This document shows, piece after piece, positions 7,652 through 9,937 of a stretch of DNA of 64,000 nucleotides; the stretch's first letter is position 1, and each line of letters begins with the position of its first letter. The notes beneath the pieces were generated by a model. That model did no database searches, was not told where the DNA came from, and was given only the letters and a program-made list of their open reading frames with translations. The position numbers and the translations under genes were made by a program. Source of the DNA: a virus; IMG/VR virus record IMGVR_UViG_3300030012_002072, positions 1-64,000 of that record; one strand, 5' to 3'.

Positions 7652-9937
7652 ATGGCAATATATGTTAACGACAGCGGAACACTTCGAGAGATTTCCTTTC
7701 TGGCAATCAACGATAGTGGTACGGTCAGAAGAATCAATGAAGTTTATGTAAATGACGGCGGGTCTCTTGAAGGCCCGTTCACTATTACACATACAACCAG
7801 TAGAGATACTGCGACTTCAACTATTACGATTTCTGGACTACAGTTAACAACATTTAATACAACTACAACTTTTGATACTAATAGAAGTACAGTAACAACA
7901 ACTGTATTTGATACAACTACAACTTTCAATACTAATAGAAGTACAGGAAGTTCTAGAAGTACAACTACAACTTTTGAAACAAATACAACTACAACTACAG
8001 CGTTTACGACTACAACAGCGTACACTACAACTACTACCTTTACAACAACACAAGGTACAACTACAGCGTTTACAACTACAACAGCGTATACTACTACGAC
8101 TACTTTTGAAACTAGTAAATCGACTACAACTACTTTTACTACTACAACTGCATACGAAACTACTACTGCTTTTGAAACAGATAAGAGTACTACAACTGCA
8201 TACGATACAACAACCGCGTATACTACAACATACGATACAACAATTAGTACAAGTAGAACTACAACTTTCGCAACCGATACTGCATATGTAGATAATACAG
8301 GTCAAAGTACTACTAGAACTACAACATTTGCTACAACTACAGCATACGAAGATACTACAACTTTTGAAACTTCAAGAGACACAGTATTCGCTACTGATAC
8401 AGCATATGTTGATAATACAAGTTTTGCTACTACAAGAGATACAGTATTTGCTACTAGTACTGCATATGTGGATAATACAGGACAGGCAACAACTAGAACA
8501 ACTACATTTGCGACAACAACCGCATATGTAGATAATACAGGTCAAGCCACAAGTAGAACAACTACATTTGCTACTACTACTGCGTATGTAGATAATACTT
8601 CACAGTCAACAGCTTATAGTACTACATTTGCAACAAACACAGCAAGAAACACTAATACAAGTAGAGGTACAGCATTTACTAATTCTACATCTTTTGCGAC
8701 AAATACAGCAAGAAATACTAATACAAGTAGAGGTACAGCATTTACAAACAATACTTCTAGAAATACAAACACTTCTAGGGCAACTGCAACAGCATATAGT
8801 TTTGACCCAGAAGCAGGTGGTACTGAGTTTGATAACACAACAACTTCATTTACTAACTCTACATCTTTTGCTACAAACACATCAAGAAATACTGCGTTTA
8901 CTAATGCAACAGGATTTACAAATAACACTTCTAGAAATACTAATACAAGTAGAAACACAGCGTTTACTAACTCAACAGGATTTACAAATAATACTACAAG
9001 AGGTACAAGTAGAACAACTTCATTTGCAACAAATACTTCAAGAAGCACAAATACATCCCAGTCAACTTCTTATACAACTACATTTGCTACAAATACAAGT
9101 AGAAGTACAAATACATCGCAATCTACAAGTTATACTACAACATTTGCCACAAATACTGCAAGAAGTACAAACACTTCACAAAGTACTTCTTATAATACTT
9201 CACAGGCAACAAATACAAGCAGAAGTACAAACACTTCTCAGAGTACAACATATAATACTAGCCAGACTACTAATACAAGTAGAAGTACAAATACTTCACA
9301 GACTACTTCGTATACAACAACATTTAGTACAAATACAAGCAGAAGTACAAACACTTCTCAGTCAACAAACTACGAAACTTCTTTTGCGACTTCAAGAGCA
9401 AGCTCACGAAGCACAGGAACAAGTAGAACTACAACTACAGTATTTGATACTACTCAAGCAACAGCTACAAGTAGAGGAACAGCAACTTCCAAATCTACTA
9501 CAACAGTATATAATACTACACAAGGCACAGCTACAAGTAGAAGTACAGCATCCAGTAGAACAACGACTACAGCATTTGATACTTCACAAAGTACAGCAAG
9601 TTCTAGAAGTACTGCTTCAAGTAGAAGTACAACTACAACTTATAATACAACTAAGAGTACAACAACTGCCTTTAATACAACAACAACTTTTGAGACAACT
9701 CAAAGTACATCTAGCTCTAGGGGTACAACTACAACTACAACATTTAATACCACTAAGGCTACCGAGACAAGTAAGAATACTGACCACTTGACAACAACAA
9801 CATTTGATACAAGTACAACAGTATTTGAAAGAACAACCGCCAGCTCAGCAGGAACTCTATTTGATACAGAAGTGTCAAGCCTAGAAGATTATGGATTCTC
9901 TTACTGGGATGGCTCACAATGGAGTGAATCTAGCTAA
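7652..9937 (+). CDS. Thr/Ser-rich repetitive (mucin-like) putative virion fibre
   Basis: 761 aa dominated by T/S/N with two 20-aa repeat blocks; coupled to fibre operon. Confidence 0.75.
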   Translation: MAIYVNDSGTLREISFLAINDSGTVRRINEVYVNDGGSLEGPFTITHTTSRDTATSTITISGLQLTTFNTTTTFDTNRSTVTTTVFDTTTTFNTNRSTGSSRSTTTTFETNTTTTTAFTTTTAYTTTTTFTTTQGTTTAFTTTTAYTTTTTFETSKSTTTTFTTTTAYETTTAFETDKSTTTAYDTTTAYTTTYDTTISTSRTTTFATDTAYVDNTGQSTTRTTTFATTTAYEDTTTFETSRDTVFATDTAYVDNTSFATTRDTVFATSTAYVDNTGQATTRTTTFATTTAYVDNTGQATSRTTTFATTTAYVDNTSQSTAYSTTFATNTARNTNTSRGTAFTNSTSFATNTARNTNTSRGTAFTNNTSRNTNTSRATATAYSFDPEAGGTEFDNTTTSFTNSTSFATNTSRNTAFTNATGFTNNTSRNTNTSRNTAFTNSTGFTNNTTRGTSRTTSFATNTSRSTNTSQSTSYTTTFATNTSRSTNTSQSTSYTTTFATNTARSTNTSQSTSYNTSQATNTSRSTNTSQSTTYNTSQTTNTSRSTNTSQTTSYTTTFSTNTSRSTNTSQSTNYETSFATSRASSRSTGTSRTTTTVFDTTQATATSRGTATSKSTTTVYNTTQGTATSRSTASSRTTTTAFDTSQSTASSRSTASSRSTTTTYNTTKSTTTAFNTTTTFETTQSTSSSRGTTTTTTFNTTKATETSKNTDHLTTTTFDTSTTVFERTTASSAGTLFDTEVSSLEDYGFSYWDGSQWSESS
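8261..8620 (+). repeat. Six 60-bp coding tandem repeats (SRTTTFATTTAYVDNTGQAT-type)
   Basis: GCATAyGtn-GATAATAC-like unit recurs at 8282, 8342, 8402, 8462, 8522, 8582. Confidence 0.9.
9011..9370 (+). repeat. Six 60-bp coding tandem repeats (TTFATNTSRSTNTSQSTSYT-type)
   Basis: AATACnnnnAGAAGyACAAAyAC unit recurs at 9032, 9092, 9152, 9212, 9272, 9332. Confidence 0.9.

Follow-up and report, generated by a model that had tools for sequence, protein, structure and literature searches.

The closest described system to the one reported here is the tip of the phage T4 fibre protein gp37, in which three chains form a six-stranded antiparallel needle with a head drawn from the middle of the sequence (Bartual et al. 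2010; PMC9659904). The tip comprises the last 215 residues of gp37, its flanks are conserved and its centre variable, and the folding gene gp38 adjoins. Here we describe a Thr-rich protein of 761 residues (P0001) encoded in the first 64 kb (hereafter the window) of the 75.6-kb IMG/VR virus record IMGVR_UViG_3300030012_002072, which resembles gp37 in its apparent fold-back logic, in having a variable centre between conserved flanks and in the presence of an adjoining gene. It differs in that its arms comprise 320 residues each (up to ∼870 in relatives) compared with 215 residues for the whole gp37 tip, and in its strict two-residue alternation and its pairing code of Thr opposite Thr (T:T) and aromatic residues opposite Arg, Lys or Gln (aromatic:R/K/Q), neither of which is described for gp37 in that source. 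Pfam, PHROG and tblastn searches found no sequence similarity of P0001 to the tip of gp37 or to fibre families related to it. Inward-facing His motifs bind metal ions along the axis of the gp37 needle, an arrangement that is impossible in P0001 because its 761 residues (37.7% Thr, 14.1% Ser, 9.6% Phe plus Tyr, and two Pro) include only two His.

Fold-back stalks whose termini share one head and whose mid-chain forms a hinge or tip are also known from the coiled-coil arms of SMC/Rad50 proteins and the alpha/polyproline II stalk of streptococcal antigen I/II. As in these proteins, the N- and C-terminal halves of P0001 appear to pair over their full length and are matched in length. The SMC/Rad50 and antigen I/II stalks are, however, helical, tens of nanometres long and without a one-to-one code, whereas P0001 appears to be beta by its alternation and composition and has bulge-free residue-by-residue pairing, and the lengths predicted in its family reach an order of magnitude more. 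Tryptophan zippers and OspA exemplify designed and natural beta hairpins or single-layer sheets held by cross-strand aromatic or cation-pi pairs, with arms of ∼5–20 residues; P0001 is similar to them in its apparent cross-strand aromatic/basic and Thr/Thr pairs and in having no classical hydrophobic core, but among its 320 residue pairs there are 58 successive rungs of this type. The T5 protein pb1 is a trimeric fibre with a Peptidase_S74 intramolecular chaperone, and S74 is a marker of trimeric fibres (PMC4690869). In related uncultured phages, proteins terminating in S74 include Thr-rich repeat shafts of the same composition as P0001 (for example, at locus L083, see below), and the present phage is T5-like, but P0001 lacks an S74 domain (Pfam scan), and the S74-terminated proteins lack an internal register and are instead complementary to the product of an adjacent gene. 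Our literature searches found no description of a mirror-coded fold-back fibre design.

We propose with good confidence, on the basis of sequence patterns, that P0001 is a single chain that folds back at a central DPEAGG segment to form a two-stranded antiparallel beta ribbon, with ∼320 residue pairs in register. The chain is predicted to turn at this segment because its two 320-residue halves match when one is read backwards. When all mirror registers (i + j = c) were scored for aromatic-to-Arg/Lys pairs, P0001 gave one sharp peak, at c = 776, with 41 pairs that account for all 41 Arg and Lys of the arms, compared with a background of 3.3±4.2 in the other registers and 20 for the runner-up. 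With Gln added, 58 of the 63 arm aromatics stand opposite Arg (35), Gln (17) or Lys (6) at this register. The second-best mirror register yields 24 such pairs, and parity-preserving shuffles (n = 5000) yield 11.9±2.8 with a maximum of 22, placing the observed count at z = 16. A parallel register between the arms was rejected, its best offset giving only 21 pairs as against 58 for the antiparallel one. The centre of the register is Ala388 (nucleotides 8813–8815), inside DPEAGG (residues 385–390, nucleotides 8804–8821) and close to the chain midpoint at residue 381. In the hairpin layout the arms are bulge-free from the turn out to residues ∼50 and 726, and the pairs R50:F726 and F68:K708 also obey the register; the ribbon code thus begins inside the N-terminal head part of the protein (Table 1).

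One face of the predicted ribbon comprises 90 T:T pairs and 58 aromatic:R/K/Q rungs, the latter one per 4 or 6 residues, and the other face only small pairs (T:S, A:S, N:N, A:T, G:A, and V:S). A preliminary description of this DNA, made from the letters and their translations, had noted six 20-residue units in each of two arms on either side of a DPEAGG segment near the gene midpoint. Translation of the open reading frame (ORF) and Tandem Repeats Finder confirm both observations: AYVDNT or AYEDTT occurs in the six N-arm units (60-nucleotide period, 5.3 copies, 8278–8598), and six NTSRSTNTSQ units lie in the C-arm at residues ∼459–578 (60- and 120-nucleotide periods, 9014–9368). The local repeat periods are themselves mirrored, being 22, 20, 22, and then ∼18 residues from the centre outward in both arms. 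The further proposals of the preliminary description, that the arms pair antiparallel in register and that their match exceeds low-complexity drift, agree with the single mirror register centred on DPEAGG, which has its equivalent in every relative, and with the excess over shuffled sequences. Direct opposition of Asp or Glu to Arg, a contact it had anticipated, was rejected as the code: Arg faces Tyr or Phe, and the Asp of VDNT lies diagonal to the Tyr-facing Arg (i + j = 778) in six cases, those of the six 20-residue units. The regular Thr face it envisaged is not present, as T:T and aromatic:R/Q rungs alternate. A DNA palindrome was also rejected as the source of the symmetry. The DNA contains only four short imperfect inverted repeats, and because none of these is able to yield it, the symmetry exists at the protein level only.

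Large and small residues alternate without slipping over ∼650 residues of P0001, the single break being DPEAGG. Between residues 61 and 736, T, F, Y, R, Q, and K are found at even positions and T, S, A, N, G, D, and V at odd ones, with even:odd counts of 63:2 for F, Y, and W together, 35:1 for R, 18:0 for Q, 2:55 for A, and 7:87 for S. Spacings between aromatics are all even within residues 68–384 and 400–718, and odd spacings (9 and 7) occur only beside the turn. Every homolog has the same alternation with one central break located no more than ∼10 residues from mid-chain. An unslipped alternation of ∼320 residues, occurring twice, is what we would expect a continuous beta strand to require; a solenoid, domain array or disordered linker has no reason to maintain it. 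The composition nevertheless invites a different explanation, namely that P0001 is a beta solenoid with coils of 20–22 residues or an ordinary Thr/Ser-rich linker of the low-complexity or mucin-like type, and that its symmetry reflects repeat drift. Its 52% Thr plus Ser, its tandem repeats of 54–66 nucleotides and a nearby gene matching glycosyltransferase family 29 (GT29) are reminiscent of glycosylated repeat proteins, and AlphaFold2 drew short strands. We consider this very improbable given that drift cannot yield 58 of 63 paired aromatics, the mirror-site insertions and deletions (indels) described below, or an arm-length correlation of r = 0.997 over a 7-fold length range, and that neither a solenoid nor disorder sets a link between residues i and 776 − i or a global phase. 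Thr-rich ice-binding beta-solenoids have equal coils and unconstrained halves, whereas P0001 has mirrored periods of 18, 20, and 22 residues and a global register; disordered Ser/Thr-rich stalks of the serine-rich-repeat or mucin-like type lack the strict phase, mirror code and paired indels that it displays.

Other Thr-rich proteins, alike in composition but different in their termini, provide a further comparison, and 11 of 13 distinct examples have no dominant internal register (ratio of best to second-best ∼1.0–1.4). The two exceptions are a hairpin-like protein found at loci L065 and L068 and a member of the P0001 family that is cut at a contig end (L095). We rejected these other proteins as pure negative controls, since several pair with the product of a neighbouring gene. 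The hairpin-like exception (L065:5032–7545, identical in L068) comprises 831 residues, of which 47% are Thr, and its 67 rungs share a single register centred at 0.505 of its length; it is without the usual N- and C-terminal head domains.

Using the gene downstream of the P0001 gene as an anchor, we identified 39 related IMG/VR loci, ten of which contain distinct complete syntenic homologs of 752–1556 residues. An exhaustive phmmer search gave 39 matches, mostly N- or C-terminal end fragments because assemblies break within the repeats, together with two short full-length matches of 302 and 340 residues that consist of the N domain, two Thr-rich arms separated by a centre of 75–85 residues rich in Tyr, Gly, and Trp, and the C-terminal motif. 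Each of the ten syntenic relatives has a single register peak on its own break, with 81–95% of aromatics paired (128 of 137 in the protein of 1556 residues). The N-arm was taken to extend from the conserved N domain of 64 residues as far as the break, and the C-arm from there to the conserved C domain of 52 residues. In 13 proteins of 302–1556 residues their lengths are almost perfectly correlated (r = 0.9995, slope 1.02), differing by at most 16 residues over a span of 68–714; the four closest relatives have N/C arms of 312/310, 320/310, 324/322, and 332/330 residues. The preliminary description had held that homologs with unequal arms would speak against a hairpin and that a hairpin should gain and lose repeats in both arms together. 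Arm lengths instead co-vary, and pairwise alignments of close relatives contain indels of equal length at mirror sites (+4/+4, +6/+6, −6/−6, +12/+12, +20/+16+4, and +10/+10). Rung flips, in which an aromatic:basic pair becomes basic:aromatic, were counted nine times, which is a soft count because the alignment is ambiguous inside repeats.

The turn itself provides a test of geometry. The nearest relatives have a PEGG turn, an odd register and arms in opposite alternation phase, whereas P0001 has a PEAGG turn that is one residue longer, an even register and arms in the same phase. Turn length and arm phase thus shift together, such that large residues face each other in both turn types. Across the relatives the centre varies in size, from a turn of 2 residues up to a Tyr/Gly/Trp-rich domain of 85, between conserved termini; this fits a distal tip located in mid-chain. 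These features also bear on the possibility that the N-arm pairs with the C-arm of another chain, in a dimer or a staggered polymer, giving a fibre of double length that has N and C heads at each end and adjoining DPEAGG segments at its middle. An antiparallel homodimer accounts equally well for i + j = constant and for equal arms, and the two arms are found on adjacent genes in other phages, so such zippers probably exist. We consider inter-chain pairing unlikely for P0001, however, as the centre is always of a turn type (PEGG, DPEAGG, or DPDDEAG) or a globular insert and is the sole break in alternation, whereas a strand crossing a dyad requires neither a turn nor an inserted domain. Moreover, when the turn differs by one residue the register changes parity, precisely as it must in a hairpin, and a fibre requires one virion-proximal end.

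The same pairing data allow that the arms are partners without being hydrogen-bonded neighbours in a sheet, as in a two-layer cross-beta structure or a wider barrel with intervening strands, where the mirror code would reflect side-chain packing across layers. The code is evidence for co-variation of residues i and c − i rather than for backbone geometry, and the small-residue face (A:S, N:N, and G:A) resembles steric-zipper interfaces. This arrangement appears quite improbable to us because the co-varying large residues (aromatics with R/K/Q) share alternation phase, as in lateral pairs of an antiparallel sheet, because a tight turn of 2–3 residues suits a hairpin more than a beta arch, and because face-to-face arches need many stacked chains for their hydrogen bonds.

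Searches with the two short proteins extended the family by 41 further members from other phage lineages (230–1781 residues, two cut by contig ends). Their N domain is a different one (MAIKIWDGDS…), but they share the C-terminal motif ER.TA…TEV.S…[YF]WDG..W, which is also present in P0001, ending …FERTTASSAGTLFDTEVSSLEDYGFSYWDGSQWSESS. P0001 has all the features by which we delimit the family, namely unbroken alternation, a dominant mirror register, the C-terminal motif and a downstream phrog_26179 gene. For 49 complete proteins of 230–1781 residues, the lengths on the N and C sides correlate with r = 0.997 and a slope of 0.98, and the best register lies at 0.50–0.54 of the length in 47 of them, the two exceptions (0.39 and 0.45) having no dominant register. 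The member of 1781 residues has 142 rungs at one register. Residues 1–43 of P0001 contain three VNDxGxLR-type repeats, and the family has largely escaped annotation: Pfam and PHROGs gave no family for P0001 or six other members tested, and the C-terminal head part produced only a sub-threshold DUF2510-like match in a Pfam profile scan. Word-based protein searches with whole P0001 and with residues 1–60 found no homologs, and tblastn against 50,697 phage records found no relevant match to whole P0001 or its C-terminal domain. The N-terminal domain had one weak tblastn match among cultured phages (E = 8e-3, Pectobacterium phage ZF40).

Five loci contain adjacent Thr-rich gene pairs (Table 1) with mirror-complementary products, aromatics of one chain standing opposite R/K/Q of the other at one i + j, and neither protein of these pairs has an internal register. 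The pair at L075 has 167 rungs at one i + j compared with 104 in the next register. At L083, the only pair scanned, the product of the first gene has a C-terminal Peptidase_S74 chaperone domain. Adjacent pairs of this type are probably a two-chain, trimeric version of the same zipper, and they indicate that antiparallel Thr-rich strands are generally paired by this code, in support of pairing between arms such as those of P0001, with hints of a 3+3 six-stranded assembly. Taking the one-gene and two-gene versions together, we lean toward the view that they constitute an undescribed fibre class in which one or two polypeptides are zipped into a two-stranded antiparallel beta ribbon, hundreds of residues and ∼20–290 nm long, by a T:T and Phe/Tyr:Arg/Lys/Gln code, with compensatory indels and swaps like those of an RNA stem, and that this class is widespread in marine phages and has a dedicated partner gene.

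Several observations weigh against the hairpin. AlphaFold2 run without an alignment returned meanders of short strands, with predicted local distance difference test scores (pLDDT) of 35.8 when all of P0001 was modelled and 36.2 when only its central 181 residues were, although both models are too low in confidence to count for or against a hairpin, and the ESM Atlas model has a pLDDT of 0.54. We know of no solved precedent for an isolated two-stranded ribbon of this length. Both faces of the ribbon are fairly polar, with ∼24 Asp or Glu on the small-residue face, and it may therefore need partners or ions. The two-gene versions imply that inter-chain pairing is possible for P0001 too, and the homologs are mutually related, so the arm-length points are not fully independent. 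Finally, we infer beta conformation, intramolecular pairing and the attachment site from sequence, and the incorporation of P0001 into the virion and its function from gene position alone.

If P0001 is a single-chain hairpin, we predict that its conserved N-terminal domain is followed by 320 residues running outward as a continuous beta strand, that a 3-residue turn inside DPEAGG reverses the chain, and that a further 320 residues return antiparallel and in register, the C-terminal domain ending beside the N-terminal one. The rungs of Phe or Tyr with Arg, Lys, or Gln would probably be cation-pi or ring-on-aliphatic contacts. A beta strand rises by ∼0.33 nm per residue, so that 320 residues per arm would give a stalk of ∼100 nm, the order of length put forward in the preliminary description; predicted stalks in the relatives range from ∼20 to 290 nm. 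Given the place of the gene at the end of a tail-fibre operon, the fibre would be anchored to the tail by its N and C termini together, with the chain midpoint as its distal tip. Such a structure could be a long fibre for adhesion or for sensing the host, with surface glycans as its probable ligands, and we favour, as a conjecture, reversible glycan adhesion because a face of Thr, aromatics, Arg, and Gln is typical of glycan-binding surfaces. By analogy with T4 gp37, three hairpins might associate into a six-stranded needle, a tentative suggestion to which we give somewhat less than an even chance.

A fibre of this kind would be long and thin; the number of residue pairs would set its length digitally, and its register could be read from a two-letter code. 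It would explain a large family of Thr-rich proteins annotated as "hypothetical" in ocean viromes, whose genes interrupt metagenome assemblies and are missed by Pfam and PHROGs, and would be a candidate for the structure with which abundant uncultured marine phages of the T5-like and T4-like kinds contact their hosts. It would also represent a natural case on which current structure predictors fail and a template for programmable beta-ribbon nanomaterials.

Table 1. Positions of the fibre gene, its parts and its neighbours in the window, and of adjacent Thr-rich gene pairs at other loci
Feature	Position	Strand	Basis or remark
Fibre gene, whole, stop codon included (761-residue Thr-rich protein P0001, putative fold-back fibre)	7652..9937	+	Open frame
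N-terminal head part, residues 1–64	7652..7843	+	Conserved across syntenic homologs; dominates phmmer matches
N-arm, residues 65–384	7844..8803	+	Strict two-residue alternation; even positions are large residues
Six N-arm 20-residue units TTTFATxTAYVDNTGQxTxR, residues 201–320	8252..8611	+	Face residues 456–575 under register 776
Central turn D385-P-E-A-G-G-T391	8804..8824	+	Sole alternation break and centre of mirror register
C-arm, residues 392–711	8825..9784	+	Predicted antiparallel partner of N-arm
C-arm stretch opposite the six N-arm units (NTSRSTNTSQSTSYTTTFAT units), residues 456–575	9017..9376	+	Mirror register
C-terminal head part, residues 712–761 (…ERTTASSAGTLFDTEVSS…YWDGSQWSESS)	9785..9934	+	Conserved in all syntenic homologs
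Tail-fibre protein of the same operon, 765 residues	5125..7422	+	PHROG tail-fibre families, E down to 2e-69
74-residue ORF directly upstream of fibre gene	7424..7648	+	ORF layout
54-residue ORF between fibre and partner genes	9937..10101	+	Helix-like by eye
Partner gene phrog_26179, 295 residues	10082..10969	+	PHROG match E = 1.8e-41
213-residue protein	11902..12543	-	Pfam Glyco_transf_29 (sialyltransferase family), E = 5.8e-8, 32.9 bits against a cut-off of 23
Two-gene pair, L075	4134-7769 and 7812-10937		
Two-gene pair, L081	4947-7898 and 7902-10499		
Two-gene pair, L098	6729-8891 and 9461-11128		
Two-gene pair, L083	5793-8771 and 9341-11893		
Two-gene pair, L051	2015-6094 and 6653-10240		

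The DNA polymerase of the phage is 47% identical to polymerases of T5-like Salmonella and Escherichia phages, and we regard the source, from its sequence, as an uncultured marine T5-like phage. The minus strand of the window contains replication genes (ribonucleotide reductase, an SbcCD-like nuclease, helicases, PolA, and ligase), and the plus strand from position 1 to ∼7650 encodes tail-fibre-type proteins with PHROG matches of E down to 2e-69. The fibre gene closes this tail-fibre operon, starting 3 nucleotides past the stop of the preceding ORF. A small ORF overlaps its stop codon by one base and also overlaps the start of the partner gene; counterparts occupy the same place in other phages, as homologs at L087 and L092 and as a 72-residue ORF in Vibrio phage KVP40. 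The Glyco_transf_29 gene converges on the fibre operon, and its homologs accompany the fibre locus at L087 and L092.

A homolog of the partner gene phrog_26179 (∼290 residues, 27–57% identical) is located 3′ of the fibre gene in 36 of the 41 family rows, usually at a distance of 100–150 nucleotides. Residues K167, H169, P170, S212, and E213 are among those invariant in the partner protein, and N211, M214, and G215 are nearly so. The partner family comprises at least 596 relatives, and among the best 120 of these none has an informative name or a Pfam domain; a search of the PDB found no sequence relative of the partner protein. Its identification as KpsS/KpsC (Capsule_synth, PF05159) was rejected, since a search of all 75.6 kb of the record with the PF05159 profile gave no match even at E up to 10. 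In the partner family, PF05159 matches 2 of 24 members, at E of 0.03 or worse, and it is present in 14% of the members of one Atlas cluster, the sole and weak lead to KpsS/KpsC kinship. The partner may either act as a modifying enzyme or assist folding, as T4 gp38 does. At L066, L074, and L077, two paralogous short hairpin genes (230–321 residues) flank a single partner gene.

Homologs of the partner gene are present in some cultured phages, two of which have Thr-rich genes beside them. In Vibrio phage KVP40 (L100), KVP40.0254 (5067–5660) is followed by the 72-residue ORF (5673–5891) and the partner homolog (5968–6729), so that the three genes are ordered as they are in the window. KVP40.0254 comprises 197 residues, 29% of them Thr, and has C-terminal arms of ∼55 residues with nine aromatic:Arg rungs around a K-G turn. 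Caulobacter phage Lullwater (L099) encodes gp41 (5255–5902) between a tail-fibre gene and the partner homolog gp42. This Thr- and aromatic-rich protein of 215 residues has a best mirror register of 11 rungs, compared with 9 for the next, centred on KPSEDP, and regular aromatic:R/K/Q rungs near its termini; it may be a distant family member in a cultured podophage. Both proteins are leads, as candidate experimentally tractable members of the family.

Two of the tail-fibre-type proteins preceding the fibre gene on the plus strand (404–1615 and 5125–7422) are built of SVDSSELVSGSIDTIHL-type repeats. At the DNA level they resemble proteins of Prochlorococcus podophages and a Pelagibacter phage, and the sequences suggest that fibre modules are exchanged among marine phages.

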